This document shows positions 28,878-53,793 of a stretch of DNA of 64,000 nt, piece by piece. Under the pieces are notes generated by a model. It did no database searches. It saw nothing but the letters and a program-made list of their open reading frames with translations, and was not told the origin of the DNA. Position 1 is the first letter of the stretch. Every line of letters starts with the position of its first letter. Both the position numbers and the translations under genes were made by a program. The stretch is from an uncultured Eubacteriales bacterium (GTDB lineage Bacteria; Bacillota; Clostridia; Oscillospirales; Acutalibacteraceae): positions 7,578 through 71,577 of the forward strand of contig CAKTVV010000012.1 in assembly GCA_934630515.1 (NCBI GenBank), read 5' to 3'.

Positions 28878-28927
28878 GGGTATTCCTCCTTTTTGATTGT
28901 ATATATTCAAACGGCACAAGGTCCGTC

Positions 28928-31660: not shown

Positions 31661-31751
31661 CAGACACCCGCTCCTTTGATGCGCCGAGCAGCTTCCCTGC
31701 ATAAGCACCGCCCGGGTACAGAGAGACCCGGGACAGAGGCGCCCGGCGCTT

Positions 31752-34700: not shown

Positions 34701-35798
34701 GCTCTTAAACTCCTTGAAGCCTGCCACCCAGCCGCACAGACCGTCGCTGAAATCCCCATTGGTCAGCAGCTGGGTCTTGGCGGTGTCCGCCGTCTCGTAT
34801 ACGGTGGCATCGAAGAGGTTGCCCTCGCACACAGCGGCGTTCTTGAACCGGATGATGAAGTAGAGACTCTTTCCGGTGATGTCGCTGCCGTTGTTATCCT
34901 TAGAGGGAGCGTCAAAGGTATAGGTGTAATACACCGACTTTCCGTTGGGCTCCTTGCTGGCCGTGACCTGCGGGGTCACCCCCGGCTGCGTCCACGAGCC
35001 GGTCACCACCCGGAACACCAGATCAAAATCGTCCTCGGTGATGCCCTCCGACAGGGCAAAGGTGTAGGTGTAATTCTTGCCCGCCGTTACCGCCACCGGC
35101 ACCTTGAGCTCGCAGTTGCCGCTGTTCTTAGTCTTGTTGATGTGCAGCATCTTTTTGGCGGCGCTGCTGTCCAGAAGAGACTCATCCAAATCCGTCACCG
35201 ACACCGCAACATAGGTGCCGTCGGCATACTCCGAGCCGGACAGGGGCGTGGACTCCACAAACCAGCCCTTCAGCCCGCTTTTGAAGTCGCCGTTCTGCAG
35301 CAGCTCCGTCTTGGCGCTGTCATCTGCCGCATAGGCGGTGGGACGCACCAGATAGCCCTCGCAGGCGGCCTTGAACCGGATGATGAAAAAGACGGAATCG
35401 GTCATGGCGTTGCCGTTATTGTCCTTGGCGGGGATCGTCAGGCTGTAGGTATAATCATACAGCTGTCCGTTTTTCTCCCGGCTGACCTGCGTGATGGCGG
35501 CATTGACCCCCACCTTGACACCGCCGGGGCTGTCCGCCCGACACACCACCTCAAAGCTGCCGTCCATGGCGGCACTGGCCAAGAAGCGGAAGTGGTACTG
35601 CTTGCCCACCTCCACCCGGACGGGCGTGCGCAGCTCGTCATAGTTGCTGTTTACCTTGCTCACCTGGATCCGGAGCATCTTCTCCCCGGCGGCGGCACGT
35701 ACCGTCAGCGGCAGGAACAATCCCAGCAGCAGGCTGACGATCAGCACCCCGCAGAGCAGTCCCTTCCATCCGGTCAAGCTCTTTCGTATGCTACCCAT
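31752..35798 (-). CDS. 1348-aa surface protein: 6-7 tandem jelly-roll modules, two CarboxypepD_reg-like domains, C-terminal TM anchor
   Basis: AAAGGTGGA RBS precedes ATG 35798. Signal peptide ...LLLGLFLPLTVRAAAG. The C-terminal tail is PVLWIVLAGVAVLVIAAGAVIAVILVQKKKKQA. Confidence 0.9.
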   Translation of the reverse strand: MGSIRKSLTGWKGLLCGVLIVSLLLGLFLPLTVRAAAGEKMLRIQVSKVNSNYDELRTPVRVEVGKQYHFRFLASAAMDGSFEVVCRADSPGGVKVGVNAAITQVSREKNGQLYDYTYSLTIPAKDNNGNAMTDSVFFIIRFKAACEGYLVRPTAYAADDSAKTELLQNGDFKSGLKGWFVESTPLSGSEYADGTYVAVSVTDLDESLLDSSAAKKMLHINKTKNSGNCELKVPVAVTAGKNYTYTFALSEGITEDDFDLVFRVVTGSWTQPGVTPQVTASKEPNGKSVYYTYTFDAPSKDNNGSDITGKSLYFIIRFKNAAVCEGNLFDATVYETADTAKTQLLTNGDFSDGLCGWVAGFKEFKSGDTTGTDSNGTTQLTVLPFDESLIDAEPSGPQMLHITKTSAARGELKNSAPVEKGQTYDYTFGLSNGFTDSDFELVCRVNTGTGTQPGVAANIQRVRRVENKISTLYTYRFTVPLNDQNIGDHELYFIIRFKTACEGDLFNPCVYRTDDADKTNLLDNGDFTSGLYGWIWEFRTFAADQREADVTEYAAKLQVVDFDEALLEESDNTPKMLQVNKTGAARGELMQLVPVTAGASYDFTFGLTDSIDKFEVVCRASDAAKRAGINAQITQVKKDVRNGGTLYTYRFTIPEKDNNGNPVTDQVFFIVRFPQGSIYQGALYVPSVCAVGAESTELLTNADFRSGLDKWSLEYTWLSGKHFQNSDMELTVVTLDESLLEKNRDEKHMLHIKTSRAKELMQRVPVKAGESYEFSFSLTHNLKNFTMVCLSDGKRRPVDANIQAVSEVEKDGYTVYTYRYTIPVTYVDSEGNSVPMTDTVFFGMKAAGTFEALFFDASVHNVNDPAKIELLNNPEFKLELNDWAWGWDAWFAHSDTALAGMNRWENESTLLETVEYSDQSIADMIAKIPSKKMVYFVNGTKSSNFASRVALQANAEYQVTFSAYSTGPFDIKVTEDDARPTVRVNSELVSEEKHGNYTTYTYRFTMPDTVKTENVFVGVLVNFFSEGYIFDMSLYRADDPKQKNLWNNATFGVGLDGWIWDWHAWFGTWAENPAGTFEWTNGANTVKVMDFDLSKIDQLIAELNVNDGKWWNDSDIIQEDTPQTATLSGTLLDENRQPRAGVKLLLKSDSKTYTAVTDKNGRFTFKNFPAGFYELYAVDADGNSVSTGYFSSFSGGDTAVLQLTLDASGAATEPDNTPDDDTPETAGSTLRGTVYTPQLKTVADLKIFLKGVGETTTNAQGSFTFENVPVGEYELYTLLEDGSKYVFRTVQIKENVGLSVKLKYDPATDTAADGTPVLWIVLAGVAVLVIAAGAVIAVILVQKKKKQA
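32433..35687 (-). repeat. tandem array of ~177-aa protein modules (coding repeat)
   Basis: The module-initial motif N[GAP][DET]F..[GE]L..W falls at ORF residues 177, 355, 532, 709, 881 and 1056 (spacing 172-178). Each module also has ML.I.KT, Y.Y.F, YTY.FT.P.KDNNG and FFI.RFK blocks. Confidence 0.85.
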
Positions 35799-35825
35799 AG
35801 CGTTTCCACCTTTCTCATGCAAGTT

Positions 35826-36719
35826 TTATTCCCAATGCTTCACGCAATACCGTTGATACAGCAGATAGATGGCTCCGATCACCACCAGCACTACCGCAAA
35901 ATAGAGCCACAGCATCGCCGAGCTGTTGCCGTAATCCTGATTGAGCATCCGGCTGTAGGCATTGGCCACCAGCGTATTGTTGGTATCCACAAACAGCTCG
36001 ATCATGGTGTAGATCAGCACCAGCGAGATGATGTGCCGCAGACTGGGCACGGTGATGAGCCAGAACTCCTCCCACTTGTTGGCGCCCTCCAGCTTCGATA
36101 CCTCATAGAGGGAGGCGGGGATGCTCTGCAGACCGGCGATGAACAGCACCGTCTGCACCCCACATTTCCAGATGATGTTGATGCTGTTGGACAGCAGGAA
36201 CACCAAAATCGGTGTGACCTGGGAGGGAATATTCAGATTGGCGATGATCTCATTATAGTTGATGATGCCCGTGCCGGCGGTGCCGGAGGAGAACAGGGGC
36301 ATGGTGATGAAATCGCCGTTGAGGGTGCTCATCACCACGGAGTTGCTGATGATGGCGGGCAGGAAGAAGATCGCCCGAAAGACGGTCTTGCCCTTGAAAT
36401 TCTGGTTGAGCAGCACCGCCAGAATGAGGCTCAGCGCCAGAATAAAGGGCAGGGAGTAGAACATCATCCCCATGGAATCCCGCATATTGTCCAGATAGTC
36501 GGCGCTGACCGTCAGCAGCTCCCGGTAATGCTCCAGCCCCACGAACTGCGTCACCACGCTGCCAGGCTCAATAAGGATATTGTTGAAGCTGTACCACAGC
36601 GAGCAGCCCAGCGGATACACAAAGAACAGTGCCAGCCCGATGAGCCAGTGCAGCACAAAGCTGTACCCGGCACGGGTGCGGGTCTTTTCCAGACTTCTGG
36701 CGGAAGTTGATCTTGCCAT
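35826..36719 (-). CDS. sugar ABC transporter permease (MalF-type)
   Basis: N-terminal FVGLEHY pattern, EAA loop LYEVSKLEGANKWEEFWLITVP and 6 TM helices. Confidence 0.85.
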   Translation of the reverse strand: MARSTSARSLEKTRTRAGYSFVLHWLIGLALFFVYPLGCSLWYSFNNILIEPGSVVTQFVGLEHYRELLTVSADYLDNMRDSMGMMFYSLPFILALSLILAVLLNQNFKGKTVFRAIFFLPAIISNSVVMSTLNGDFITMPLFSSGTAGTGIINYNEIIANLNIPSQVTPILVFLLSNSINIIWKCGVQTVLFIAGLQSIPASLYEVSKLEGANKWEEFWLITVPSLRHIISLVLIYTMIELFVDTNNTLVANAYSRMLNQDYGNSSAMLWLYFAVVLVVIGAIYLLYQRYCVKHWE

Positions 36720-36730
36720 TGTTACACCTC

Positions 36731-38932
36731 TCAGCCCAGACAGAACGCATAGGGCTGCAATTCCCCGGCGGGGCAGCGCTGCGTTCGGTCGGTTTGGTTC
36801 ACATAGACGGTCTTGCCGTTTGCATAGCGGGTACAGCTGACCCCGTCCGCCCCCAGCGTATATTCGACCAGCGGCGACTGCGCCACCGCCGCATACAGGG
36901 CGGCGTAGCCGCTGGCGGTCAGGGTCTCGACGATGCTCTGCCGATGGTCGGCGTAGAGCGTGCCGTACAGCTTATATTCGCTCAGGTCATCGGAGCCGTC
37001 CACAAAGGTATCCGTCAGCGTATAGCCCAGCCCCATGCCGTAGGCGGCTGCCCGGGCGATCGCCAGCGGAATGTTCTCTGCCAGATTGATCGCCTCGGTA
37101 TACAGAGGCTTATAGCCGTGGAACACCATCTGGTAGAACGGCACGGCGGCGTCCAGCCCGTCGTAGCTGCCGGTATCCGCAGGAGCGTCAAACACCACGT
37201 CCGCCGTCCCGGCGGCATAGCCGTTGGCGGCAGCCACCGCCGTCCGGTAGCCCGCCTGCTGCGCCGTTTTCAGCAGCACCGCCGCATCCTGCTCCATCCC
37301 CGCCTTGCTGATATACCCCTCGTCGGAGTATGCCGTGCTGCCCAGACTGGACAGACTCACCGCACCCACGCCGTAGCGTGCTGCCTTTTTCAGTGCAAAG
37401 GCGGCGGCGTTTGCCAGCTCCTTCCGGGCGAGGGTGTAATAGGCGTTGGTCTTATCGTTCACCCGCAGCGGGGTCACGGGGAAATGCTCCGCTTTATACT
37501 GGATAGCGGTCTTGGCTGCATCCAAATTAAGAGAGAATCCACCGCCGGACTTAGAGAAGTTCACGATATCGTAATCCGGGAACAGGTTGTCGCCGCACAG
37601 CGCCGTCAGCGCTGCAAGCTCGCTCTTGGAGCCATACACCGACGGATAGCTCTTGCCTCCGGCGATGCGTCCCGGGCGGATCCCGGCGTCTCCGTAGCCC
37701 ATCAGCCGCACCAGCGGCAGCGTGCCCGTCGTCTCCTGCAGCTCCGACACGATGCTCTGCGCCTGTGAGAAGGTGGTCATCGTCACCAGTTTTTTCCGGG
37801 GAATTCCGAATATGGAAGTGGTGATATTGGTTCCGCCCAGCAGTGTCACCGCATAGGGAGCGCTTTCCTCCGTCGTGGCGGTCATGCCCTGCGCCAGCAG
37901 GTAGTCCTGATACCGGGCGGCGATTCCGGCATAGCCAGCCTCGTCGCCGTGAAGCGCCTGATACGCCACGGTCATCTTCTCTCCGGACATCCGGTCGTTG
38001 ACCCGGCTGGTGATCCCTTTATAGTTGCCGTGATATACATAAGAGAACTCGTCATAGCCCCGCACATAGAACACAGCCCCGACGTAGGAGCTGCCCAGCC
38101 GGGAATTGCCCGCCTGCGCCTGAATCTCGCAGGAGGCGGCGCCCTCCTCGATGATGCCCATCAACCCCTTGCCGTCGCCATAGGCGCCGAACACGGGCAG
38201 CCGCACCGCCTGCTCCTCGGTCAGATTCAGCGGATTGCGGCGAGCCGCATCCCGGCCGTACACCTCGCCGGTATACTGGCGGGCGCCGTCCGGCGTCTCC
38301 GCCGTATGCATCACCGCTCCGCTGCCGGCGGGAACAAACAGCTGTCCGCCCGCCGCATCGTTCTTCACGCTGCACAGGAACGGGGTGACCGTGACCGATA
38401 CCAGCTTATAGTCATCTCCATCCTCCAGAATCTTGGAGGAATCCACGGTGACGGTCAGACCGTCCTCCCGCAGCACATAATCCACCGGCACGGCGATCTT
38501 ATACGCATCGAAGAAATAGGTGACCCGCATGCCGTTATCCAGCTTTTTGCACACCACGCTGCCGTTATTTTCTGTCTGGGAATAGCTGGAGAGGGTGTCC
38601 CATTTCAGCGTCTTGGTGTTCGCCACCGTGATGCTGATGGGGCTGCTGGCGTTGGCGCCGGCGCTGCCCTCCCGGAACGCATCCAGCAGAATGTCCGACC
38701 AATAATCGCCGGTATCCGTCGCCTGCAGCACGATCGCCCGGCCGTCCGACTCCCAGGTCAGCGCATACCGGTCGTTCGTCGCCAGCGTCTGGGCGTCCGA
38801 CACCGTCCCGCTGACGCTGCGGTAGCCGTTGGCAGCGGCGGAGCCGCCGCAGCCGGACAGCGCCACCAGCGGAATGCACAGCGCCAGCAAAACAGCGGCG
38901 GTGCGGATGAAGCTATGTTTGAACGCCGTCAC
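36731..38932 (-). CDS. large lipoprotein of unknown function (DUF5696-like from memory)
   Basis: The preferred start is GTG 38932, with an AAAGGAAAGG RBS 8 nt upstream, giving signal MTAFKHSFIRTAAVLLALCIPLVALSGC (lipobox LSGC). The track start ATG 38995 would overlap the upstream gene by 23 nt. Confidence 0.75.
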   Translation of the reverse strand: MTAFKHSFIRTAAVLLALCIPLVALSGCGGSAAANGYRSVSGTVSDAQTLATNDRYALTWESDGRAIVLQATDTGDYWSDILLDAFREGSAGANASSPISITVANTKTLKWDTLSSYSQTENNGSVVCKKLDNGMRVTYFFDAYKIAVPVDYVLREDGLTVTVDSSKILEDGDDYKLVSVTVTPFLCSVKNDAAGGQLFVPAGSGAVMHTAETPDGARQYTGEVYGRDAARRNPLNLTEEQAVRLPVFGAYGDGKGLMGIIEEGAASCEIQAQAGNSRLGSSYVGAVFYVRGYDEFSYVYHGNYKGITSRVNDRMSGEKMTVAYQALHGDEAGYAGIAARYQDYLLAQGMTATTEESAPYAVTLLGGTNITTSIFGIPRKKLVTMTTFSQAQSIVSELQETTGTLPLVRLMGYGDAGIRPGRIAGGKSYPSVYGSKSELAALTALCGDNLFPDYDIVNFSKSGGGFSLNLDAAKTAIQYKAEHFPVTPLRVNDKTNAYYTLARKELANAAAFALKKAARYGVGAVSLSSLGSTAYSDEGYISKAGMEQDAAVLLKTAQQAGYRTAVAAANGYAAGTADVVFDAPADTGSYDGLDAAVPFYQMVFHGYKPLYTEAINLAENIPLAIARAAAYGMGLGYTLTDTFVDGSDDLSEYKLYGTLYADHRQSIVETLTASGYAALYAAVAQSPLVEYTLGADGVSCTRYANGKTVYVNQTDRTQRCPAGELQPYAFCLG

Positions 38933-38972
38933 TTGCGTCACCTTTCCTTTTACAAAATCAGTCGATCGGCTC

Positions 38973-41093
38973 TCATCGGTAGGCGACCTCCTCATAAACG
39001 GATACGAGGAAGGTGAAGAACTGGGAGATCAGGATCGCACAGAGAAACAGAATGAACACCACCAAAATCATGAAGAAGATGGTGACCAGCCCCGTCAGCA
39101 GAAACTGGAAGAAATCGTATTCGTGCATCTTCATGGTCGCCACCGCCACCAGGAAGAAGGTGTAGAGCAGCATCACCGTCGTCAGCGCCCCGATCAGCCC
39201 GGAGGTGGACAGGGGCAGGAACCGGGTCAGCAGCACCCGCACCAGCTGGAACAGGACCCACGGCACCAGCGCATAAGCGGTGGCGGTATAGACCTCCCGG
39301 AGGGTGCCCTTGCCGGAGAACATGGAGCAGACCAGCCAGTTGCACACCGACCACAGCACCAGCAGACCGGCGGTGCTGCCCAGCGTATACAGCGAATTGT
39401 AATTGCGCAGCAGCGTATCCGTATACAGGAACCCGGCGCCGATCACATTCAGCACCGCCGCCACATAAAACAGCACCGTGATCCCCATCGCCGCCTTGAC
39501 CGAGCCGAGCTTTTTATACTTCATCTCGTCGTAGCTGTCAAAGGGGTGAAACGGTACCCGCAGCATCAGCTGCAGCTGCGGGTTGGTGATCAGCCGCTTT
39601 TTCCGGCGGCGCAGCCACAGCCAAAGCCCCACCACGGCGCCGATGACCGCCACAATCAGCAGCAGGATCCACACAAAGTGGTCGGCGATGAACTGGGAGA
39701 CCAGCTCCTGCCACGCCAGATCGTACACGGAATAATCCATTCCGGTGCGGGCCGCCTCCAGCGCCGCCCGGTAGTCGCCCTCGTTATAGTACGCCATCGC
39801 CAGACCCTTATAGGCGGGATGGCAGTTCCGGTTGAGGGACAGCACCTCCTGCCACAGGTTCTTCGCCTGGGCATAGTCGCCGTCCAGATACAGCCCCTGC
39901 GCCTGAAAGAGCTTGTCGCCGTAGTCGGTCATCCGGAACACGGTGACGGTGTAGCTGTCCTGATCCGCCACCAGCACGTCCCGGCCGTTGAGGGCCAGCG
40001 CCGTCGCCTTGCGGAACACGCCCAGCTGGTTTCCCTGCCCATAGCCGCCGCCGAAGGCGGACAGCAGGTTGCAGTCGGTGTCATAGATGTACACCGTGCC
40101 GTTGCCGCCATCCAGCACATAGATGAATCCGTCGTCGCTGACCGCCACCGAGGTCAGATCCTGCACGGCGGCGCCCTCCGGCTTGGAGGTCTCCAGAAAA
40201 TTCACCGTGGAGGAGGTCACGGAATCCCCGTCCAGCTTACGCTTATAGAGGATGTTATCGCCGTTGTGGCTGATCTTCCGCAGCTGCCCCACCGTCCCCT
40301 GAGAGCTGTATTTGTCCGAGCTGATGGCGCCGGTGACGGTGATCATGAAATCCTCGGTGTCAAAGCAGAAATCCGTGAAGGAATAGGGCAGGGTCTTGAC
40401 GGACGCCGCCTTTTTCGCATCGGTGCTGGTGAGCCGCTTCCACAAATAGGACAGGGTGTCCAGCGCCGACGCCTCCACGGTGTTGGAGCCGTAGAAGCCC
40501 ATAAATTCGTATTCCGGCGAGTACATCAGCGCTCCGTAATAGCACCCAAGGCTGAGGATATAGGTGTACCCCTCCGTATCCTTTTCGATGGCTATGGGGT
40601 GGAACAGGAAATCCTCCGGGATCAGCGACGACTGGGGGCTGCCCAGCGTCTGCTGCACCACGCCGTCGGCGCTGCAGATCAGGATGCGCTCATGGTTGGT
40701 GTCGGCGATATAGAGGTTGCCCTCCCCGTCGGCATATACCCCGCCGGCGCCCTCAAAATCCACGGCGCCCTCCCCGTCGGTCACCGGGATCTCCCGGGCG
40801 GCGGAATAATCGGAGCGGATGGAGATGAGCCGGGAGGTACCGCCGCACAGCAGCAGGATCTCTCCGTTCGGCTGGCGGAAAATATCGGTGATCCCCTCCA
40901 GACTGCTGGTCAATCCCAGCGAGGCGGCACTCATCTCCTGCACGGCGGCATACATTTCCCGGGTCACGTTGACCTCGATGGCGCCGGGAACGTCCGCACG
41001 GGTGTAGGAATCCGTGACGCCCGCCGCCGCCGGCAGCACCGTCGCCGCCGCTAACACAACGAGAAGTGCAAAAACAGCTATTTTCTTGAACAA
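38973..41093 (-). CDS. NHL-repeat/TPR extracellular domain fused to a Yip1-family membrane domain
   Basis: TTG start after GGGAGGGAAGGA. Signal peptide MFKKIAVFALLVVLAAATVLPAAAG. NHL-like blades (NLYIADTNHERILI, FIYVLDGGNGTVYIYD, VLVADQDSYTVTVF) and a TPR-like stretch (GDYAQAKNLWQEVL...AYYNEGDYRAAL) are followed by one TM and a 5-TM Yip1-like region. Confidence 0.8.
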   Translation of the reverse strand: MFKKIAVFALLVVLAAATVLPAAAGVTDSYTRADVPGAIEVNVTREMYAAVQEMSAASLGLTSSLEGITDIFRQPNGEILLLCGGTSRLISIRSDYSAAREIPVTDGEGAVDFEGAGGVYADGEGNLYIADTNHERILICSADGVVQQTLGSPQSSLIPEDFLFHPIAIEKDTEGYTYILSLGCYYGALMYSPEYEFMGFYGSNTVEASALDTLSYLWKRLTSTDAKKAASVKTLPYSFTDFCFDTEDFMITVTGAISSDKYSSQGTVGQLRKISHNGDNILYKRKLDGDSVTSSTVNFLETSKPEGAAVQDLTSVAVSDDGFIYVLDGGNGTVYIYDTDCNLLSAFGGGYGQGNQLGVFRKATALALNGRDVLVADQDSYTVTVFRMTDYGDKLFQAQGLYLDGDYAQAKNLWQEVLSLNRNCHPAYKGLAMAYYNEGDYRAALEAARTGMDYSVYDLAWQELVSQFIADHFVWILLLIVAVIGAVVGLWLWLRRRKKRLITNPQLQLMLRVPFHPFDSYDEMKYKKLGSVKAAMGITVLFYVAAVLNVIGAGFLYTDTLLRNYNSLYTLGSTAGLLVLWSVCNWLVCSMFSGKGTLREVYTATAYALVPWVLFQLVRVLLTRFLPLSTSGLIGALTTVMLLYTFFLVAVATMKMHEYDFFQFLLTGLVTIFFMILVVFILFLCAILISQFFTFLVSVYEEVAYR

Positions 41094-41115
41094 GGTGATC
41101 CTTCCCTCCCGTTGT

Positions 41116-41979
41116 TTATTCTTTGATGCCCGAGCTGCTCATGGTCTCCAGCACATTCCCCTGGGTCAGCAAAAACACCAGAATCGGCGGGATCATCATC
41201 AGCACCGTGATCGCCATGGAGCTGCCGGAGCGGGCGATTCCGCCCGCCGCCACGGAGCTCATCACCGACGGCAGCGTTTTCAGCTCCTCGCTGAAGATAG
41301 TGCCGGTGGACTGGGTGGACCACATGGCTTGGAACGAGAACAGCAGCACCGTCATCAACGCCGGTTTCATGATAGGCATCACGATGCGCCCGTACATCAC
41401 CAGCACCCCGGCGCCGTCGATCCGGGCAGCCTCCAGCAGCGAGTTGTTCACGCTGGCATCCATAAACTGCTTCATCAGGAAGCAGCTGACCGTCGAAGCC
41501 AGCGTGGGGAAAATATACACCCAGTAGGTATCGATCAGGTGCAGCTTGGAAAAGATCAGATACTGGGGCACCGCCAGCGTGACGGCGTTATACAGCATCA
41601 TCATCTGGATGAGGGTGAAGATCGCCTTGCGCCCCCGAACCTTGGATTTCGACAGGGTGAACGCCGCCATCGACCCCACCAGCACCGACAGAAGCGTGGT
41701 GGTGATGGAGATGAACAGGCTGTTGAACAGATACCGGGAGATCGGCACCTGCAGATTGCTCAGCAGCGCCGGCAGCACCTTGAAATTCCGCAGGGTCGGT
41801 CGGACCACGTAGAACTTCGGGGGGAAGATCAGCAGCTCATCCAGCGGCTTGAGGGATGTCAATATGCAGTAAAACAGCGGAAAGACCGTAAACAGCCCTG
41901 CACCCAGCAGGACCGCAAAGAAAACGACGTTTCCTGCCTTTGAGCGGGTGAACCGCCTGTATTGCGCATTCTTTGCCAA
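41116..41979 (-). CDS. carbohydrate ABC transporter permease (MalG-type)
   Basis: TTG start after GAGGAG. LTSLKP... N-terminal pattern and EAA loop LLEAARIDGAGVLVMYGRIVMP. Confidence 0.85.
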   Translation of the reverse strand: MAKNAQYRRFTRSKAGNVVFFAVLLGAGLFTVFPLFYCILTSLKPLDELLIFPPKFYVVRPTLRNFKVLPALLSNLQVPISRYLFNSLFISITTTLLSVLVGSMAAFTLSKSKVRGRKAIFTLIQMMMLYNAVTLAVPQYLIFSKLHLIDTYWVYIFPTLASTVSCFLMKQFMDASVNNSLLEAARIDGAGVLVMYGRIVMPIMKPALMTVLLFSFQAMWSTQSTGTIFSEELKTLPSVMSSVAAGGIARSGSSMAITVLMMIPPILVFLLTQGNVLETMSSSGIKE

Positions 41980-41996
41980 ATCGTACCGCTCCTCAC

Positions 41997-42911
41997 TTAC
42001 TCACTTTTCCCGATGAGGTTGAGAATCGCTCCGATGCCGTATCGGAAAGCGATCACCACCGCAAACAGGAACACCGACAGCGCCGCCGCATAGCCCATCT
42101 CATAGCGGGAGGTCGCCACATCCTCGATATACGACACCAGCGTATCCACCGAATTGTTCACGCTGGGGTAGCCCGCCAGCGTCTTGATCAGGGTGCTGAT
42201 GGAAAACGCCGCCTGGATCTGCATCACGGCGCTGAACAGCAGAATGGTCTTCATGGACGGCAGGGTGATATACCACAGCTCGTGCCACCGGGTGCGGATG
42301 CCGTCGATCGCACCCGCCTCATACAGCTCCGTGTTCACATTCTGCAGACCGGAGATATTCGCCAGGAAGGAAATGCCCATGCTCATCCACAGCTGCACCA
42401 GCACGATCACGAAAAAGTTATAGCTGGTGTTCTGGAACCACTGGATCGGCTCGGTGATGAACCCGAAGCTCAGCAGGATGTTATTCACATAGGCATAGCT
42501 GTCGCCGGAAAACATCACCTGCCAGATATACAGGGCGTTGCCCACCAGCGAGGGCACATAGAACACAAAGGTCAGCAGCACCCGGATGGCACGGGGAAAC
42601 TCGTTGATCATCCACGCCAGCAGAAACGCCAGCAGATATCCGCCCGGTCCCACGATAAGAGCAAATTTGAGAGTCGTCCCCACCACCTTAAAGAAGGTGC
42701 GGTCCGCCGTGAACATCCGGATGTAGTTGCCGAAGCCGATGAACAGCGGCGAGGACACCATGTCGTAGTCAAAAAAGCTCAACACCATGGACGCCAGCAC
42801 CGGCAGCATATTAAAGATAAAGAAAGCCAGCAAAAAGGGCAGCAGGATCAGATAGAACATCACGTCCTCCCGCACAGCACCCTGTCGGATGGCGGCATTG
42901 CGTTTTCTCAC
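41997..42911 (-). CDS. sugar ABC transporter permease (MalF/LplB-type)
   Basis: GTG start after GAGG. FIGFGNY pattern and EAA loop LYEAGAIDGIRTRWHELWYITLP. Confidence 0.85.
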   Translation of the reverse strand: MRKRNAAIRQGAVREDVMFYLILLPFLLAFFIFNMLPVLASMVLSFFDYDMVSSPLFIGFGNYIRMFTADRTFFKVVGTTLKFALIVGPGGYLLAFLLAWMINEFPRAIRVLLTFVFYVPSLVGNALYIWQVMFSGDSYAYVNNILLSFGFITEPIQWFQNTSYNFFVIVLVQLWMSMGISFLANISGLQNVNTELYEAGAIDGIRTRWHELWYITLPSMKTILLFSAVMQIQAAFSISTLIKTLAGYPSVNNSVDTLVSYIEDVATSRYEMGYAAALSVFLFAVVIAFRYGIGAILNLIGKSE

Positions 42912-42948
42912 ATTCTTCGCCTCATTCTGTCGTTACAAGATAGATCGG

Positions 42949-45774
42949 TCATCGGTTGGCATACTGCTTCCACTTGCGGTCGATCTCGTCGTCCGCCTCC
43001 TTGCCGAAGCGCATGAGCATATCCTTGGAGTTCTTGTTGGAATTCACCACGTTCCAATACGCCTGATAGATGGAACGGGAGACGTAGTAGCTGCCCGGAT
43101 ACTCCGGCAGCTCCTGCACATTCTGCCAGGCGTCGAGAATCGACGCCTGCTCCTCCCGGCTCCAGGAGAACTGCCGGAATGCCTCAGTGTTCGCCACCGC
43201 TACCCGGCCGGTGGGACCCAGCACCGACTCCAGATCGTTGGAATAGGACATCTGGGTGTCGGCGGAGGTCCACCACTTGAGGAATTCCCACGCCCCCGAC
43301 GGATTCGCAGAGGATTTGAGGATCACGCACCCGGTGCCGCCGCCGCTCACCGCATGGGAGACGGTGCCGTCGCTCTGCACGGTGCCGGGGATCGCCGTTA
43401 CGCCCCACAGCCCCTCGATCTCGGGGGCAGCCGCCTTGATGGTGTTAAACAGGGTATATGAGCTGATGCCCAGCGGGGTGGTGCCGGTACGGAACCGGTT
43501 ATAGAAATCCAACGTCTTGGGGAATTTCAGCTTGGTATAATAATTCGTCCACTGACCGAAGATCTCCATCGCCTCGGCGGACAGCAGATTGGTCTTTTTG
43601 CCGTCCTCCGCATACAGCGGCACGCCGTTTTGCAGCAGCAGACTGGGGAAAATATTGTTGCTGCCCACACCCAGATTCGCCTGTGCCACATCGGTGGCGG
43701 CAGTGATGGGCAGATACACCGTCATATTATTGCGCATGAGGATCTTGGCGACCAGATTCAGCTCCTCCCATGTCGTCGGCACCGACAGACCGTACTCCGC
43801 CAGAATATCCTTGCGATAGAACATCATGTAGAAATTCTGGGTGTCCGGCAGGGCATACAGTCCGCCGTTGAAGCGATAGGGGGTGTCGGCGCCGGGCATA
43901 AACCGGGTCAGCACCTCGTCGCAGTCCTCAAATTCCGACAGATTCCGCAGCACACCACGCAGCGCCAGATTCACCGGCTCCGAGCGCACCATCTGCAGGA
44001 AGCAGTCCGGTCCGTTGCCCGACAGAATCGCCTGAATGACCGTGGCGTTCGCCAGCCGCAGGTTCACCTGCACATGGCTCTGGGGCTCAAAGGAACGCTT
44101 GATGAGAGAATTCAGCACCTGCGCCTGATCCCGGCCCCACGAGACCCAAATGGTGATGGACTGTCCGTCCCCGTCGCCGCCGGCTACGGTGTTATAATCC
44201 TTGGAGAAGGACACCGCAAACCGCCGGGCGGAAAACGCCAGCTGCCGGAAAAAGCCGCTGCTTTCAAAGGGCTCCTCGGCACCCACCGGGTTGAGGGTGA
44301 TCCGATCCAGATCCAGCGGCATCTCCCGCAGCTCCTGCAGCACCGAGGACACCGAGCAATAATTGGAATAGTAGGTGTCCTTATACCGATGCGCCTCATA
44401 CCGGTGATTCAGCATCTGCTCCACCGTGTTCCGCATATTCAGGATCACCGCATACTTGGAGCCGCTCGTCTCGCCGGTCACCTGCTGCAGCGCCTCACCG
44501 GACTCCTGCAGCCGGGCGGCAATGGTCTGCAGCCGCTCCTCCATATCGGCGATCTGGGTGAACAGGTCATAATCCCGATAGATATCCACCGTCTCGCCGG
44601 TGATCTTCGTCATATCCACATAAAGGGTGCCCAGTTGGGACACCGCCTGAGTCAGCAGGGTGCGCACCTGCGCCATATCCGCCGCCGTCACCGACAGCCC
44701 GATGCGGTGCTTGCCGGCGGAGAGATACACCAGATAAGGTGTGCCGTCGTCAGCGGAGAAAAATTGCTTTTGCCAATCCTCGCCGTAGGGGAAGCCCACC
44801 TGCGCCGCCTCGGCAAAGGGGATCTCTCCGTCCACCGTCAGGGTGCGGTAGCTCTTGCCGCCGATATTGCTGCTCTGACGGAAGGAAAAGCCCAACTGGT
44901 AATAGCCTGCCGGCAGCTCCGGGGTCTCCCACACCAGCGTCTCGCCCACCGTCTTCCAGTTGCCGCCGCCGATGTAGTTGATGCGGTTGCGGTCGGCGCT
45001 CTGGGGGGTCACCGCCACCGAGGCGCCGTCGTTCTTGCCCACCAGATAATAGCTGGATTTCACCGCAGCGTCTTCGCCCTCCAGCACCACCGTGTCGCCG
45101 GTATAATACTGCGCCGTATCGGTGGGAGCGGTGTAGGCCGCCGGCGTCGCCGCCGGGGCAAACCGGAAATACTCCAGCTGAATGGCATCCTCCTGCGGCT
45201 CCAGCGCCACCGTATGGGTGCCGGCGGTCAGATACACCCGGTACTTCTCGCCGCACTGGATGGATTCGTCCACCGCCTCGTTATAGAAATACTCCGTATA
45301 CGGCACCTGCTGGGCGACAAACTCGTTGCCCAGATCGTCCGTATGCACCTCGCCGTCCTCATTCGTCCACATCCGGGGAAACTCCAGCGCCGACGCCGCC
45401 TCATAGGGGTAGGCACCGTCCACCCGCAGCCCCAGAGTGACGCCGGACATCTGCCGCTGAGGTGCTCGGTAGGACAGCCCGACGTAGTAATAGGCGCTCT
45501 CCGGCACCGCCAGCGGGAAAGAGATCGCCTCTTTCTCCAGCACGGCTCCCTCCAGCGCATACACCGCCTCGGCGGTCGCCGCCGGGGTATCGCCGTGGGC
45601 GGCGACATAAGCGGCATAGTCGGCGTCGCCGGCAGCCGTCGTCGCCGGTGCCGTGCTGCTCTGCGCCGTTTCCTCCGCCGCAGCCGCCGGCACCCCCCAG
45701 GGAGCGAGCCCCACCAGCAGCGCCAGCGCTCCCAACAGCGCCACGCTGCGTACGACTTGTTTACTCACTTTCAT
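42949..45774 (-). CDS. 941-aa extracellular solute-binding protein with an N-terminal jelly-roll/CBM-like extension
   Basis: AGGAGG RBS and a signal peptide ending AAAAEE. The N-terminal ~480 aa has two similar beta-rich modules (YYYVGLSYR..., YYQLGFSFRQ...). The C-terminal half is SBP family-1-like (ITIWVSWGRDQAQVL..., LPDTQNFYMMFYRKD). Confidence 0.8.
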   Translation of the reverse strand: MKVSKQVVRSVALLGALALLVGLAPWGVPAAAAEETAQSSTAPATTAAGDADYAAYVAAHGDTPAATAEAVYALEGAVLEKEAISFPLAVPESAYYYVGLSYRAPQRQMSGVTLGLRVDGAYPYEAASALEFPRMWTNEDGEVHTDDLGNEFVAQQVPYTEYFYNEAVDESIQCGEKYRVYLTAGTHTVALEPQEDAIQLEYFRFAPAATPAAYTAPTDTAQYYTGDTVVLEGEDAAVKSSYYLVGKNDGASVAVTPQSADRNRINYIGGGNWKTVGETLVWETPELPAGYYQLGFSFRQSSNIGGKSYRTLTVDGEIPFAEAAQVGFPYGEDWQKQFFSADDGTPYLVYLSAGKHRIGLSVTAADMAQVRTLLTQAVSQLGTLYVDMTKITGETVDIYRDYDLFTQIADMEERLQTIAARLQESGEALQQVTGETSGSKYAVILNMRNTVEQMLNHRYEAHRYKDTYYSNYCSVSSVLQELREMPLDLDRITLNPVGAEEPFESSGFFRQLAFSARRFAVSFSKDYNTVAGGDGDGQSITIWVSWGRDQAQVLNSLIKRSFEPQSHVQVNLRLANATVIQAILSGNGPDCFLQMVRSEPVNLALRGVLRNLSEFEDCDEVLTRFMPGADTPYRFNGGLYALPDTQNFYMMFYRKDILAEYGLSVPTTWEELNLVAKILMRNNMTVYLPITAATDVAQANLGVGSNNIFPSLLLQNGVPLYAEDGKKTNLLSAEAMEIFGQWTNYYTKLKFPKTLDFYNRFRTGTTPLGISSYTLFNTIKAAAPEIEGLWGVTAIPGTVQSDGTVSHAVSGGGTGCVILKSSANPSGAWEFLKWWTSADTQMSYSNDLESVLGPTGRVAVANTEAFRQFSWSREEQASILDAWQNVQELPEYPGSYYVSRSIYQAYWNVVNSNKNSKDMLMRFGKEADDEIDRKWKQYANR

Positions 45775-45807: not shown

Positions 45808-47163
45808 TCAGCCCAGCCATTTCACCAGCCGGGGATGGGCGTCAAAGGTGGCGATCGCCTGCTCCAGCGCCTCCGCCCCGGTGGGGCGGAAGCTCAGCCC
45901 CTTGACGATCTCCACATAGTCATGGATACCGGAGGGCGTTTTCTGATAATAGGTGTTATCGGTCACCGTCAGCCCTGCCTGCTCCTTGGGAGATTTGGTG
46001 TAGATCAGGGCGCAGTCGGCGCAATCCAGCACATTTTCCGTGATCACGAAATCGTGCAGATCCTCATAGAGATTGTACCAGCCCAGCAGCGACCCCTGAT
46101 TTTCCTTCTTGCACCGCTGGAGACCGCCCCAGCCGTATCCGGCGAACCGGATCAGATTTCCCTTGTAGAGAATGTGGTCGATATGGGGCGGCCGCTTATC
46201 CGTCGCCCGTCCTGCCCAGAACTCGATGTTCATGCAGCAGTATTCGATGAGGTTATCCGCAAAGCAGATATGCTCGAACCGGGCGCCCTCCTCACCGAAG
46301 CCCTGAAAGGTTAGGGCGGCGTCAAACTGCTGATAAATCCAGCAGTTTTTCACGGTGATATGGCTGCCGAAGTACCACACCTGAAAGGCGTTGCCGTACC
46401 GGGAGGGGACATTCCGCCGCTCATCAAAACCGCAGAGCTTGCCGCCGCACCAGCCTACCACGCAGCCCCGTACCTCCACCCGGTCGATCTCGCCCAGATG
46501 GAACGGACCAAAGGTGAAATACTGAAAATGCAGGTTCTCCGCCTGAAAATCCTCTATGTAGCTGCCCCGGAACGCCACATCCGTGGTGCTGATCTCGATA
46601 TTATCGAAGTATTCTCCCGGATTGCCGCCGGTGAAGTAGAGGTAAAAGACCCCCTCCTCTGCGGTATGGTAAAAATCGCCGTCCCGCTCCAGCTCCGCCC
46701 GGGTGTAGCGCCAGCGCCCCAGCAGCGTATCGTGATTAAAGGTGGCGATGCCCGCCCGGGTATGCTGCAGAGGGGTGCACCAGACGGCGGGATCCTCCGT
46801 CTGGTGCCAGATGGCGGGATCGGCATAATCCCGGAGGGAGCCATAGATACGGGGCTTGTCGCCGGTGCCGTAGGCGCCGAAGTATACGCCGCTGTGCGCC
46901 ATATGCTTCTGCGCCGAGCGGAACACCGAGCCCCGCTCAAACAGCACCGCATCCCCCGCCTCCAGCGGCAGGGCCTCCAGCCCCTCAAAGCTCCGCCGGG
47001 GGCGCTCCGGGGACAGCCCGTCGTTGGCGTCGTCCCCCCGCTGCGATACATAGTAGGTGCTCCTGCGGGCGCTCACCGTATCCGGCGCCTCCAGGATCTG
47101 CTTTTTCCGTGCCTGAGCAGCGGCGTCTGCGCCGCCGGTCTGCCCCTTCACCTGTTCCATCAT
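45808..47163 (-). CDS. right-handed parallel beta-helix protein without a signal peptide
   Basis: STYYVSQRGDDANDGLSPERP, GDAVLFERGSVFR and FGAYGTGDKPRIYGS, plus repeated N..I.N-type turns. The N-terminus MMEQVKGQTGGADAAAQARKK is hydrophilic. Confidence 0.8.
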   Translation of the reverse strand: MMEQVKGQTGGADAAAQARKKQILEAPDTVSARRSTYYVSQRGDDANDGLSPERPRRSFEGLEALPLEAGDAVLFERGSVFRSAQKHMAHSGVYFGAYGTGDKPRIYGSLRDYADPAIWHQTEDPAVWCTPLQHTRAGIATFNHDTLLGRWRYTRAELERDGDFYHTAEEGVFYLYFTGGNPGEYFDNIEISTTDVAFRGSYIEDFQAENLHFQYFTFGPFHLGEIDRVEVRGCVVGWCGGKLCGFDERRNVPSRYGNAFQVWYFGSHITVKNCWIYQQFDAALTFQGFGEEGARFEHICFADNLIEYCCMNIEFWAGRATDKRPPHIDHILYKGNLIRFAGYGWGGLQRCKKENQGSLLGWYNLYEDLHDFVITENVLDCADCALIYTKSPKEQAGLTVTDNTYYQKTPSGIHDYVEIVKGLSFRPTGAEALEQAIATFDAHPRLVKWLG

Positions 47164-47177
47164 AATTCAAACTCCCA

Positions 47178-48857
47178 TTAGTTTTCGTGCCACTCCAGCG
47201 TCGCCTGTGCATCAAACCGCTGCATCACGGCGACAAAATCCGCCGCCGTCGTCACGGAATATGAGTTGGGATCGCTGTCATTCAGTTTATAGCCCCGGTA
47301 GATCTCGGCATCCTGCCGATACCGGGCGTTCACATAGATCTTGGTGCCGGAAACCGACAGGCGGCTGCCGATGTCGGCGGCGGTGATCTGCCAGTTGATG
47401 ATCATGCGGCCGGGGCAGTCGATGATATTGTTCTGCACCCGCAGCCCATCCACGGTCATCGTCTTGGTGTTGCCCACAAAGCTGCCGTCGATGCCCCGGG
47501 GGCCGCCGTCATTGATGCGGGTGCCCCATCCCAGCGAGGTGAACCGCATAATGTTGTTCGCCATGGTAAAATTCCGCACCGTGGAGCCCTTGTCCCAATA
47601 CTCGAAGTCGGCGTTGTTGTACTCCAGCAGGTTGTCGTTGAAGGTGATATTCTCATAGCTGAAGTCCGCCCCGCCGTAGCCCTGCCACGAGATGGCGGTG
47701 TCAAACACCTGATAGATCCAGTTGTGATTGCAGACGATGTTTTTCGCCCCCGTCCAGAACTGGATGCCGTTGCCGTAGCGGGAATTGCCGTCGGTGGTGG
47801 TGGCGCCGCCGATGTAGCCGATCTCACAATTGGTGATGGATACATTGTAGGCGTTCCAGGTGCAGCTGACCCCCATGATGCCGCCGTATTTCAGGCAGAG
47901 GTTGTCGATCACCACATTGCCCACGCCGCTGGGTACGCCGATGATGCCCATACGCAGGGCGATCTCGATATCCGCATACACCTTGGCGGGGTTGCCCTTA
48001 TCGCAATAGAGATACAGGGTGTTGGTGGATTTATCCTGGAAGAAATCCGTATTCTTTTCCAGACTGCGCAGCCCGGTCTTGCGGTAGCCCACCGCCTGCC
48101 CATGATCGAAGATCATGCTGCCGCAATCGGCGTAGATATAGTCCATCTGCCACACATTTCTCTTGACAGAGGGCGTCCAGACGGCGTTCGCCAGATTCGC
48201 CGGCGAACCATAGAATTTCGGCTTTTCGCCGGTGCCGTAGGAGCCGTAGGTGACCCCCTTCACCGTCAGGAAGGTGGTATACAGCCGGAACACCGAGCCC
48301 CGCTCAAACAGCACGGCGTCTCCCTCGCTCAGGGGCAGACCCCGCACCGCCTCAATGGTCTGGAGGGGAGCCGAGGGCGAGGTGCCGGCGTTGGCGTCGT
48401 CTCCCTTTTCAGAGGAGACGTAGTATTTCTTCCCGGTGATGGTGTAGTAATTCTCCGTGTTGCCGGTGCCCACGATGGCGCTGCGCAGCGCCTCCGCCTG
48501 AGCGTCGGCATAGCCCTTCAGCGGGTTGCTGAGGCTCGCCGTATTCCCGGTGGGAAGCACCTCCTTCACCGTGCCGGAGGTATTGCTCACCGTCTCGTCA
48601 AAGGTGAACTGCCCCGACGCCACCGCATCCACCGACGGGCCGTCGGAGGAGGGATCGGAAGCGTCATCGGGGGTCGGGCTGCTGTTGTCCGACACATTCC
48701 CCGAGGACGGGGTGTCGCTATTCGATGGAGTGACCGAGGGATCCTTCCCGCCGCCGCAGCCGGACAGCAGCACCGCCAGGATCGCCAGCAGAGCGAGGAC
48801 GACCTGTAATCGACCCGCTCCCTTTAAGGAGCGGTTGTTATTTCCAGCTTTCTTCAT
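47178..48857 (-). CDS. right-handed parallel beta-helix lipoprotein
   Basis: Lipobox LLSGC after a hydrophobic signal, then a Ser/Pro/Asp-rich linker. KYYVSSEKGDDANAGTSPSAP, GDAVLFERGSVFR and YGSYGTGEKPKFYGS mark it as a paralog of 45808..47163. Confidence 0.85.
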   Translation of the reverse strand: MKKAGNNNRSLKGAGRLQVVLALLAILAVLLSGCGGGKDPSVTPSNSDTPSSGNVSDNSSPTPDDASDPSSDGPSVDAVASGQFTFDETVSNTSGTVKEVLPTGNTASLSNPLKGYADAQAEALRSAIVGTGNTENYYTITGKKYYVSSEKGDDANAGTSPSAPLQTIEAVRGLPLSEGDAVLFERGSVFRLYTTFLTVKGVTYGSYGTGEKPKFYGSPANLANAVWTPSVKRNVWQMDYIYADCGSMIFDHGQAVGYRKTGLRSLEKNTDFFQDKSTNTLYLYCDKGNPAKVYADIEIALRMGIIGVPSGVGNVVIDNLCLKYGGIMGVSCTWNAYNVSITNCEIGYIGGATTTDGNSRYGNGIQFWTGAKNIVCNHNWIYQVFDTAISWQGYGGADFSYENITFNDNLLEYNNADFEYWDKGSTVRNFTMANNIMRFTSLGWGTRINDGGPRGIDGSFVGNTKTMTVDGLRVQNNIIDCPGRMIINWQITAADIGSRLSVSGTKIYVNARYRQDAEIYRGYKLNDSDPNSYSVTTAADFVAVMQRFDAQATLEWHEN

Positions 48858-50332: not shown

Positions 50333-51322
50333 TCAACCGACGATACCGCTTGTAGCAATGCTGGCCATAAACTTCCGCTGAATGCAGATATAAAACACGA
50401 TCAGCGGGAGAATGAACAGCAGGCACCCCGACAGCAGGATCGGCACCAGCATGGTGGTGCTGGTCTGCAGATCCGTCTGGAGGGTAGCCGCAATGGTCTG
50501 GGCACCGAAATTGTTGATGGCGGTGGCGAAGGTGTATTTATCCAGATACATCTGCGCCAGATACACGTCGTTCCAGTGCCAGATCACCGAGAACAGCAGC
50601 ACCGTGATGATGGCTGCCCCCGAGGAGGGGATGACGATCCGCAGAAAGGTCTTCCACGCCCCGGCGCCGTCGATGGCTGCCGCCTCCTCCAGCTCCTTGG
50701 GCAAGCCCTTGAAGAACTGGGTGAATATGTAGATGAACAGTGCCCCCTTCAAGCCTACGCCGAACAGCGAGGGCAGATAAAACACCAGCGGCGTGCCGAT
50801 CACATTGGGCCGCAGCTCGTGTCCCACCACCTTGGACAGCAGCCCCAGAATCCCGAAGAAATCCAAACGGCTGAACCCGATATAGCTGGGGATGATCGTC
50901 ATCATGGTGGGCACCAGAATATTCAGCACCATCAGTGCCAGCATGATGCGCTTGCCCTTCAGATTGAACCGTGCCAGCCCGTATGCCGCCACAGCGCAGG
51001 AACAAAACTGAATGAGCGCCGCCACGATCTCGTACACCAGCGTGCGGGGCAGGGTATGCGCCACGTCGAACACCTTGAGCGCATCCACTATGTTGCCGAA
51101 ATAGACGGATTTCGGCACCCAGGTCACCGTCGCATCGTAGGCGTCGGAATAGCTCTTGACCGCATTCACCAAAATATACAAAAACGGGTAGATCAGCACA
51201 TAGCTCAACGAGAGGAAAAACAGATACCGCAGCGCCGACGCCGCCACCCGGGGCAGCGCTTTCTTCCAGCGCTCCTTATCCACGATCACAGGCGCCCGCT
51301 CCTTTCCGATTGATCTTGCCAT
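50333..51322 (-). CDS. carbohydrate ABC transporter permease (MalG-type)
   Basis: TAGGAG RBS. LVNAVKS N-terminal pattern and EAA loop LEEAAAIDGAGAWKTFLRIVIP. Confidence 0.85.
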   Translation of the reverse strand: MARSIGKERAPVIVDKERWKKALPRVAASALRYLFFLSLSYVLIYPFLYILVNAVKSYSDAYDATVTWVPKSVYFGNIVDALKVFDVAHTLPRTLVYEIVAALIQFCSCAVAAYGLARFNLKGKRIMLALMVLNILVPTMMTIIPSYIGFSRLDFFGILGLLSKVVGHELRPNVIGTPLVFYLPSLFGVGLKGALFIYIFTQFFKGLPKELEEAAAIDGAGAWKTFLRIVIPSSGAAIITVLLFSVIWHWNDVYLAQMYLDKYTFATAINNFGAQTIAATLQTDLQTSTTMLVPILLSGCLLFILPLIVFYICIQRKFMASIATSGIVG

Positions 51323-52808: not shown

Positions 52809-52859
52809 ACAGTTTCTCCCATTCGTCATGCAGGCACACGGTGCTCCGTCCGGTGCGGC

Positions 52860-53764: not shown

Positions 53765-53793
53765 ATTATAATTCTTTTGTACATTTGTATCAA
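53765..53793 (-). promoter_or_regulatory. near-consensus sigma-A promoter heading the 30-kb block
   Basis: The minus strand reads TTGATA (plus 53788-53793), a 17-nt spacer, then TATAAT (plus 53765-53770). It sits in an AT-rich stretch about 90 nt upstream of ATG 53675. Confidence 0.6.

Follow-up and report, generated by a model that had tools for sequence, protein, structure and literature searches.

The stretch of DNA analysed here (the window) comprises 64,000 nucleotides of contig CAKTVV010000012.1 (assembly GCA_934630515.1, positions 7,578 to 71,577 of the forward strand), derived from an uncultured Eubacteriales bacterium of the family Acutalibacteraceae, and has a G+C content of about 60%. 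Between about 53.7 and 23.2 kb, its minus strand carries an unbroken run of genes separated by intergenic gaps of 3-43 nt. A preliminary description had singled out five of these genes, encoding a solute-binding protein (SBP) fused to carbohydrate-binding modules (CBMs), two permeases of an ATP-binding cassette (ABC) importer, a membrane protein with NHL, tetratricopeptide-repeat (TPR) and Yip1 parts, and a lipoprotein of the DUF5696 family. All five lie on the minus strand between 36731 and 45774, and their domains were found as described by Pfam searches, hydropathy analysis and AlphaFold2 (AF2) modelling. They lie at the centre of an operon of about 30 kb for glycan utilisation. The unit that is conserved among related loci, however, is not these five genes but a module of eight to nine genes with two importers. 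Upstream of the first gene of the run is a promoter-like site (TTGATA-17-TATAAT, 11/12, 53765..53793, minus strand); it is a consensus match only, and marks a possible start of the operon.

The first importer is encoded by the genes of the long SBP (941 aa, 42949..45774), permA (41997..42911) and permB (41116..41979), all of which, like the other genes of the run given below, are on the minus strand. The two permeases match BPD_transp_1 of Pfam; permA resembles UgpA/MalF and permB resembles UgpE/MalG, and an EAA motif can be read in the sequence of each (ELYEAGAIDG and LLEAARIDGAG, respectively). In the long SBP, a type-I signal peptide is followed by two CBM35-like modules (residues ~55-372), a helical linker of about 150 aa (~373-530) and an SBP body of the CUT1 type (~531-941). 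The Pfam families SBP_bac_8 and SBP_bac_1 cover residues 577-848 only (E 3e-21), and the SBP body is nearest to solved oligosaccharide-binding proteins, e.g. Lin1841 (5ysb, 2e-15). The N-terminal extension reported in the preliminary description is about 510 aa in length, and its two beta-rich modules share 25% identity (E 1e-5), which is a weak similarity. Among 22 orthologues, the extension matches CBM_35 in 12 (best E 1.7e-7) and the related domain Golvesin_C in 13, and a profile of the extensions gave weak matches to the CBM35 structures 2vzp, 2w47 and 2bgo (E 0.1-1.4). On these grounds, the term CBM-fused SBP, as used in the preliminary description, is supported for the family.

The long SBP carries no lipobox, whereas SBP2 and the DUF5696 protein of the same operon are lipoproteins. 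A non-lipidated SBP is unusual in a monoderm bacterium. In some of its orthologues a Cys lies within the hydrophobic region and is followed by an A-x-A site, so that the mode of anchoring is ambiguous.

The second importer is encoded by perm3 (297 aa, 35826..36719), which begins 11 nt past the stop codon of the DUF5696 gene, together with perm329 (50333..51322) and SBP2 (475 aa, 48870..50297). A UgpA-like NCBIfam model identifies perm3 as a permease of the MalF/UgpA type (E 7e-17); with 21.9 bits against a cut-off of 26.4, it is the sole permease of the four to fall below the BPD_transp_1 threshold. The MalG-type permease perm329 matches BPD_transp_1 with E 1.6e-10 and is orthologous to a Paenibacillus gene annotated 'carbohydrate ABC transporter permease'. 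Their EAA motifs, again read from the sequence, are YEVSKLEGAN in perm3 and ELEEAAAIDGAG in perm329. SBP2 is a canonical lipoprotein SBP with the lipobox MAGC, a lipobox being present in all 31 of its orthologues, and it matches SBP_bac_8 and SBP_bac_1 (2e-15). With family-1 SBPs in both importers, MalF-type and MalG-type permeases, and an EAA motif in all four permeases, the membrane halves of two CUT1-type ABC sugar importers are both complete in the module.

An ATPase of the MalK/MsmX type was not found in cis in the window cluster, where no open reading frame (ORF) combines a Walker A motif with LSGGQ; the sole ABC ATPase of the window is located at about 62.9-63.7 kb, well away from the cluster. 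A ugpC-like ATPase gene adjoins the Paenibacillus version of the module. An ATPase encoded elsewhere corresponds to the MsmX/MsmK paradigm, and supply in trans is usual for CUT1 systems of Firmicutes.

Between the permease genes of the two importers lie the genes of two membrane-associated proteins. The first of them (38973..41093) encodes a protein of 706 aa that matches the Pfam families NHL (37.4 bits, cut-off 20) and Yip1 (PF04893; 45.3 bits, cut-off 28.6; residues 514-681); its TPR matches remain slightly under the Pfam cut-offs. According to hydropathy and the AF2 model (pLDDT 82), it is composed of a signal peptide, a six-bladed NHL propeller, TPR-like helices and a transmembrane helix at residues 474-492, followed by a short cytoplasmic linker and then five transmembrane helices. 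In the model, the TPR-like helices continue rigidly into the single transmembrane helix. Foldseek placed the propeller closest to the NHL domains of TRIM, Thin and Brat (TMt ~0.75, E 1e-13 to 1e-11). The NHL-TPR-transmembrane part and the Yip1 part are fused in 23 metagenome loci and in the window, and are encoded by separate adjacent genes in 33 metagenome loci and in Butyrivibrio; in the split form, the break falls in the cytoplasmic linker. Because the parts occur fused in some loci and as split neighbours in others, which is common for proteins that interact, they appear to work together. A regulatory or sensor role was set aside, as only short loops and a linker of about 25 residues face the cytoplasm, and a signalling domain is absent.

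The gene of the DUF5696 lipoprotein (733 aa, 36731..38932) starts with GTG at 38932, preceded by the ribosome-binding site AAAGGAAAGG 8 nt upstream. Its start lies 40 nt past the stop codon of the Yip1 gene and its lipobox reads LSGC, both in agreement with the preliminary description. The protein is assigned to DUF5696 (PF18952) with a score of 380.7 bits (cut-off 25.6; E 1.7e-113), and at E <= 1e-3 the family comprises 5,239 cluster representatives (clustering at 50% identity). The lipobox Cys is kept in 77 of 81 homologues, and the lipobox pattern was found in 56/66; either a lipobox or, in its place, a transmembrane anchor is always present.

In the AF2 model of the DUF5696 protein (pLDDT 88.6, pTM 0.87), an N-terminal beta-sandwich, a (beta/alpha)8 barrel and a C-terminal beta-sandwich make up the three-domain fold of glycoside hydrolase (GH) families GH129 and GH101. 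Foldseek retrieved the GH129 structures 5opq (ZgGH129; E 1.4e-32, TMt 0.70) and 5wzn (NagBb; E 2.6e-25, TMt 0.72), and after GH129 the matches in the Protein Data Bank rank in the order GH101, GH36, GH31 and GH97. The structural matches to GH129 and GH101 span the whole length of the protein, with TM-scores of 0.63-0.73 and E-values of 1e-32 to 1e-17. At the sequence level, a DUF5696 profile gave weak collinear matches to GH129 sequences of the same database (5opq, E 0.0015; 5wzq, E 0.013), and these alignments are limited to the two terminal domains and the first third of the barrel.

Residue conservation was read from an alignment of 81 DUF5696 sequences that takes in the Paenibacillus protein. 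D537, part of an S-D motif, is invariant (81/81), as is no other acid in the barrel. Also invariant, or close to it, are N570, PFY598-600 and N616, which the model puts in or just after barrel strands. E170 is kept in 80/81 sequences, but is located in the N-terminal domain. From its fold, the DUF5696 protein is predicted to be a membrane-tethered enzyme of GH129/GH101 architecture, most likely a retaining glycosidase with D537 as candidate nucleophile. The preliminary description had proposed that the lipoprotein is an accessory subunit of the importer acting in substrate capture, trimming or hand-over. Since the predicted fold is that of a GH129/GH101-type glycosidase, a role in trimming is plausible; as a structural subunit of a transporter the protein fits less well, because it looks like an enzyme.

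Many DUF5696 proteins of the Paenibacillus or Butyrivibrio type contain an insertion of 90-310 aa in the N-terminal beta-sandwich, between profile positions ~145 and ~148 (L087, L106, L108, L137, L155-L158 and L163 among the loci described below); the window protein has none. Coiled-coil-like helical sequence is abundant in the three insertions that were read (L158, L108 and L163). A fused CBM or Yip1 domain was considered as the source of the extra length and rejected, the addition being a helical segment inside the N-terminal domain.

Gene order was compared in two sets of related loci. Set 1 consists of the best 80 of 356 hits of the DUF5696 alignment in species-representative genomes, all of these best 80 being from Clostridia; six-frame ORFs of the loci were searched with the window proteins. 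Set 2 consists of 80 metagenome loci from soil, sludge, bioreactor and gut, seeded with a DUF5696 protein of the Paenibacillus type, to which their DUF5696 proteins are 24-70% identical. Neighbours were counted in those loci whose contig is sufficiently long. The NHL/Yip1 gene is directly upstream of the DUF5696 gene in 71/71 loci of set 1 and 58/58 of set 2 (129/129 in total), and perm3 is directly downstream in 76/76 and 78/78 (154/154 in total). In set 1, permA-permB precede NHL/Yip1 in 68/69 loci and the long SBP precedes permA-permB in 65/66, and in set 2 the long SBP, permA and permB are all found upstream in 40/45. On the other side, perm329 directly follows perm3 in 46/73 loci of set 1 and 69/69 of set 2, and SBP2 comes after perm329 in 32/61 and 27/58, respectively.

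The same arrangement is annotated in two cultured organisms. In Paenibacillus cellulosilyticus the order is ugpC-SBP(986)-permease-permease-YIP1-DUF5696-permease-permease, with SBPs further downstream, and in Butyrivibrio fibrisolvens D1 it is SBP(977)-permease-permease-NHL-YIP1-DUF5696-permease-permease-SBP-SBP. The best matches of the window proteins are the corresponding proteins of both loci, except that the downstream SBPs of Paenibacillus match only weakly. DUF5696 identity is only 23-26% in these two cases; in both organisms the Yip1 and DUF5696 genes overlap by 4 nt, and in Paenibacillus the DUF5696 gene overlaps perm3 as well. The recurrence of the five genes in Paenibacillus and Clostridia, as stated in the preliminary description, is thereby borne out in genome, metagenome and cultured-organism loci. 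Co-occurrence of the families is near-absolute across Clostridia and Bacilli, so that a lack of it outside this genome, which the preliminary description had named as refuting its reading, is not what was observed.

The invariant core therefore consists of NHL(+)Yip1, DUF5696, perm3 and perm329, with the long-SBP importer and SBP2 nearly always attached, and the conserved unit is an eight-to-nine-gene two-importer module. As a core, the five genes are incomplete because a third permease gene always follows DUF5696. The alternative of the preliminary description, a five-gene unit whose NHL/Yip1 and DUF5696 proteins serve the long-SBP importer specifically, as its accessory subunits, draws on the contiguity and order of the five genes in 65/66 and 40/45 loci, and on the consideration that a long SBP without a lipid anchor would need a tether. 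Linkage argues otherwise, since perm3 and perm329 are tied more tightly to Yip1 and DUF5696 than the long-SBP importer is. Importer 1 is absent from the fetched region in at least four loci (L102, L108, L144 and L155) and has moved downstream in L119 and L166, yet Yip1-DUF5696-perm3-perm329 is intact in all six. We regard this alternative as very improbable.

The window itself departs from the usual order. Its sequence of genes, perm329-SBP2-bh559-bh451-SBP941-permA-permB-Yip1-DUF5696-perm3 (bh, beta-helix protein), is, in a comparison with L023-L085 and L088-L167, an exact cyclic permutation of the common order SBP941-permA-permB-Yip1-DUF5696-perm3-perm329-SBP2-bh-bh. Such a permutation would be expected if the whole module had been duplicated in tandem and its outer parts had then been lost. 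The arrangement separates the two permease genes of importer 2 by about 14 kb. Multiple copies of the module per genome occur among the set 1 loci, with at least three in the species of the window and at least four in CAKSOL01.

The components of the module have diverged to different degrees. Across 66 loci, the median identities to the window proteins are 61% for permA, 62% for permB, 44% for perm3, 43.5% for the long SBP, 43% for perm329, 40.5% for NHL/Yip1, 34% for DUF5696 and 30% for SBP2, the most divergent core component. Mean distances in the same loci are 0.76 for the SBP body, about 0.53 for permA/permB, 1.32 for the CBM part and about 1.3-1.7 for DUF5696. The far stronger conservation of the SBP body and permA/permB than of the CBM part, DUF5696 and SBP2 suggests that the ligand of importer 1 may be chemically alike from locus to locus, and that importer 2 and the parts for capture and trimming may vary.

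Taken together, we lean towards the view that the module serves the capture, trimming and import of glycans by means of two CUT1 importers, a GH129-like surface enzyme and an NHL-TPR/Yip1 scaffold. The CBM35-like modules and the surface enzymes would capture a polymer or large oligosaccharide at the membrane, DUF5696 would trim the glycan beside the transporters, and the products would enter via the two importers. Specificity would be set by the fast-evolving SBP2, CBM modules and DUF5696, with permA, permB and the body of the long SBP acting as a conserved conduit, and paralogous copies in one genome may serve different glycans. The NHL-TPR ectodomain and the Yip1 domain would be a scaffold or assembly factor that joins the enzyme and the importer(s), as YknW does for YknXYZ.

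Several observations weigh against this view, and some of them concern the enzyme and the capture modules. The GH models of Pfam gave zero matches to 20 DUF5696 members. Because no GH model matches and the profile E-values are weak, DUF5696 should be regarded as a distant relative of GH129 and not as a member of that family. Among the 81 aligned sequences there is no second invariant acid in the barrel; conservation is 75-93% at D453, D455, D578 and D594, and an acidic residue is present at the position of D455 in 75/81, of D594 in 68/81 and of D582 in 52/81. On the capture side, residues 1-545 of the window's own long SBP gave no significant Pfam match, CBM_35 remaining below threshold.

The single invariant barrel acid, and the variability at the expected acid/base position, would also be accommodated if the DUF5696 protein were non-catalytic, a glycan-binding lipoprotein resembling the surface glycan-binding proteins, which retains the fold of a glycosidase and hands substrate to the SBPs. 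A related possibility is that the NHL propeller is the catalytic part, as some six-bladed propellers of the NHL type are enzymes, and virginiamycin B lyase and lactonases are among the fold matches. The invariant S-D motif and the invariant or near-invariant PFY, N570 and N616 suit an active site better than a binding surface, and the best fold matches of the propeller are non-enzymatic NHL domains. Accordingly, either form of this alternative appears quite unlikely to us.

The remaining difficulties concern the scaffold. We infer the membership of NHL/Yip1 and DUF5696 in a transporter complex from gene order, and gene order cannot separate a complex from a set of co-regulated proteins. A mirror-tree analysis of 12 domains across 66 loci, based on partial correlations of pairwise distances, gave no partner for NHL/Yip1. 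Apart from pairs of domains belonging to one protein, nothing stood out but permA-permB, the control pair (partial r 0.42), and values such as 0.23 for SBP-CBM with TPR and 0.17 for Yip1-TM with perm3 are weak and uninterpretable. The four loci from which importer 1 is absent also count here. The idea that the NHL-TPR ectodomain tethers the non-lipidated long SBP is weakened because loci without importer 1 keep the full NHL-TPR-Yip1 protein.

The lack of a specific co-evolution partner for NHL/Yip1 would be natural if the locus were an ordinary polysaccharide-utilisation locus (PUL) of a Gram-positive bacterium, in which the parts are co-regulated and work independently, NHL/Yip1 is a stand-alone surface glycan binder or a membrane protein with an unrelated housekeeping role, and no complex exists. 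The flanking genes are typical PUL content, and sugar ABC loci of Firmicutes commonly have surface enzymes without scaffolds (the concept of the Gram-positive PUL, gpPUL), which also counts in favour of this explanation. Co-regulation alone, on the other hand, rarely fixes the order of genes; yet Yip1-DUF5696-perm3 is kept without exception in the 129 and 154 informative loci from Bacilli to Clostridia. This order persists where protein identity is down to about 23%, with stop codons that overlap start codons, and the surrounding enzymes vary freely. We therefore consider the explanation possible but on the unlikely side, and retain the reading of a scaffolded capture, trimming and import module. 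In its boldest form, the NHL-TPR-transmembrane/Yip1 protein and the GH129-like lipoprotein would bridge the two importers into one supercomplex, a 'Gram-positive utilisome' whose CBM-bearing, non-lipidated SBP and tethered glycosidase would capture and cut polymer at the mouth of the transporters, with the products split between the two channels; this extension is speculative, and we doubt it more than we believe it.

Outside the conserved core, the run begins with a gene for a xylose-isomerase-like TIM-barrel protein (271 aa, 52860..53675; Pfam AP_endonuc_2, E 4e-19), and an ADP-ribosylglycohydrolase-family protein (498 aa, 51333..52829; ADP_ribosyl_GH, E 3.5e-38) is likewise encoded at the operon periphery. 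The flanks of related loci contain genes for AraC and LacI regulators, xylose-isomerase-like TIM barrels, GH16, GH36, GH3, GH29 and GH2. The TIM-barrel family accounts for 9 of 117 flanking ORFs of related loci and is the commonest non-regulatory neighbour.

Two right-handed beta-helix proteins are encoded between SBP2 and the long SBP. One is a lipoprotein of 559 aa (47178..48857; lipobox LSGC), and the other, a paralogue of 451 aa taken into the same alignment A4 (45808..47163), lacks a signal peptide and has no hydrophobic segment. The A4 profile matches the GH136 lacto-N-biosidases 7v6m (1e-18) and 6kqs (3.5e-16) over the N-terminal ~80 aa, and Beta_helix of Pfam matches 14 of 23 members of the family. 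Judged from their sequences, the 559-aa lipoprotein is probably an extracellular glycanase and the 451-aa paralogue is probably cytoplasmic; such a pair suggests stepwise depolymerisation. The beta-helix proteins were rejected as part of a universal core, as they are absent from all 80 Paenibacillus-type loci.

Downstream of perm3 are three genes for giant secreted proteins (23211-35822), which belong to the variable periphery of the operon; giant proteins of a similar kind follow perm3 in window-type loci. The first, of 1356 aa (31752..35822), is a surface protein anchored by a C-terminal transmembrane segment; it contains two CarboxypepD_reg domains and no fewer than six copies of a CBM_4_9-like module of about 170 aa. 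The second, of 926 aa (28928..31708), had zero Pfam matches; within its C-terminal half it carries YYVAADGDDQNDGCSPDRPIS, the opening motif of the beta-helix proteins. The third, of 1910 aa (23211..28943), is encoded by the last gene of the run and has a GDSL/SGNH esterase domain (Lipase_GDSL_2, 1e-22) and a dockerin (Dockerin_1, 2e-5). Dockerin-like calcium-binding segments are present in the 926-aa protein, where the segment was read from the sequence, and in the 1910-aa protein. The start motif YYVS/A..GDD.NDG.SP..P is common to the proteins encoded at 45808-47163, 47178-48857 and 28928-31708; likeness to GH136 is confined to the N-terminal cap, and no Pfam family covers the window copies of these three proteins.

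Just past the run is a gene for an AraC regulator (22184-23137), and beyond it are genes for a GH106-like protein (18970-22032), a calcineurin-like metallophosphoesterase (17663-18973) and a phosphodiester glycosidase of the NAGPA type (13289-14569). Together with the GDSL esterases, these three hint that the substrate is a glycan that is acetylated and possibly contains phosphodiesters. In L102, too, a GH106-like protein is encoded upstream of the core.

The module is apparently undescribed, and it is widespread in Firmicutes of gut and soil. In the library searched, the literature contained no description of the module, no mention of DUF5696, and no paper linking Yip1 or NHL proteins with sugar ABC importers, in line with the preliminary description, in which the architecture had been called undescribed; Yip1, NHL and accessory proteins all go unmentioned in a review of bacterial glycoside transporters from 2026. 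Far less is understood of how gut Firmicutes take up glycans than of the Sus paradigm of Bacteroidota, and here a fixed unit of eight to nine genes occurs in several paralogous copies per Oscillospirales genome, and also in Lachnospiraceae and Paenibacillus. Two of its components, DUF5696 and a bacterial Yip1 protein with an NHL-TPR ectodomain, are without an assigned role. Should these two proteins organise a complex of the two importers, type-I ABC sugar importers would have their first described accessory architecture, and the bacterial Yip1 family would gain a second ABC-linked function after YknW. If the supercomplex exists, the Yip1-family protein would be a general organiser of bacterial ABC-transporter assemblies. 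If the enzymatic prediction is true, DUF5696 would probably be a new CAZy family with thousands of members. Because cultured hosts exist, namely Paenibacillus cellulosilyticus KACC 14175 and Butyrivibrio fibrisolvens D1, the hypothesis is directly testable.

Compared with known systems, the module shares family-1 SBPs and MalF-/MalG-type permeases with EAA motifs with the CUT1 importers, such as MalEFGK2 of E. coli and those of the MsmEFG/MsmX type. Unlike these, it has two importers together, arranged around two additional membrane-associated proteins, and one of its SBPs, double the normal length, has CBM35-like modules and no lipid anchor.

A second point of comparison is YknW, a Yip1-family protein of Bacillus that modulates assembly of the ABC exporter YknXYZ, the activity of YknYZ being dependent on YknW (PMC4887032). 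In YknWXYZ, as in the module, a Yip1-family membrane protein is encoded in an ABC-transporter operon. However, YknYZ is an exporter of the MacB type that works with a membrane-fusion protein and YknW has no ectodomain, whereas the module has type-I importers (BPD_transp_1) and a Yip1 domain that is fused or adjacent to an NHL-TPR ectodomain. A membrane-fusion protein is absent from the module, which places it outside the YknWXYZ systems; the resemblance concerns a possible mode of working.

The DUF5696 protein has the same three-domain architecture as GH129, represented by the alpha-N-acetylgalactosaminidase NagBb and the 3,6-anhydro-D-galactosidase ZgGH129, and as the endo-alpha-N-acetylgalactosaminidases of GH101. 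It differs from both in its low identity to them (10-15%), in the variability of the expected acid/base position, in being tethered to the membrane and in being encoded within a transporter operon. The beta-helix neighbours are alike to the GH136 lacto-N-biosidases LnbX and ErLnb136, although only the N-terminal cap aligns significantly (E 1e-18), and an LnbY-like partner domain was not identified for the beta-helix proteins of the window.

Finally, the module can be compared with the Sus-like PULs and SusCD 'utilisomes' of Bacteroidota. The hosts of the module are monoderm Firmicutes without an outer membrane; there is no TonB-dependent transporter and no SusD, no SusC/SusD pair having been found among the proteins scanned, and uptake takes place via ABC importers. 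The likeness, which is an analogy only, is one of logic: in both cases a surface glycan binder, a lipoprotein glycosidase (a predicted one in the module) and a transporter are co-encoded, and paralogous loci of differing specificity may reside in one genome. In this sense, the module is possibly a Gram-positive counterpart of the glycan-capture machines of Bacteroides.

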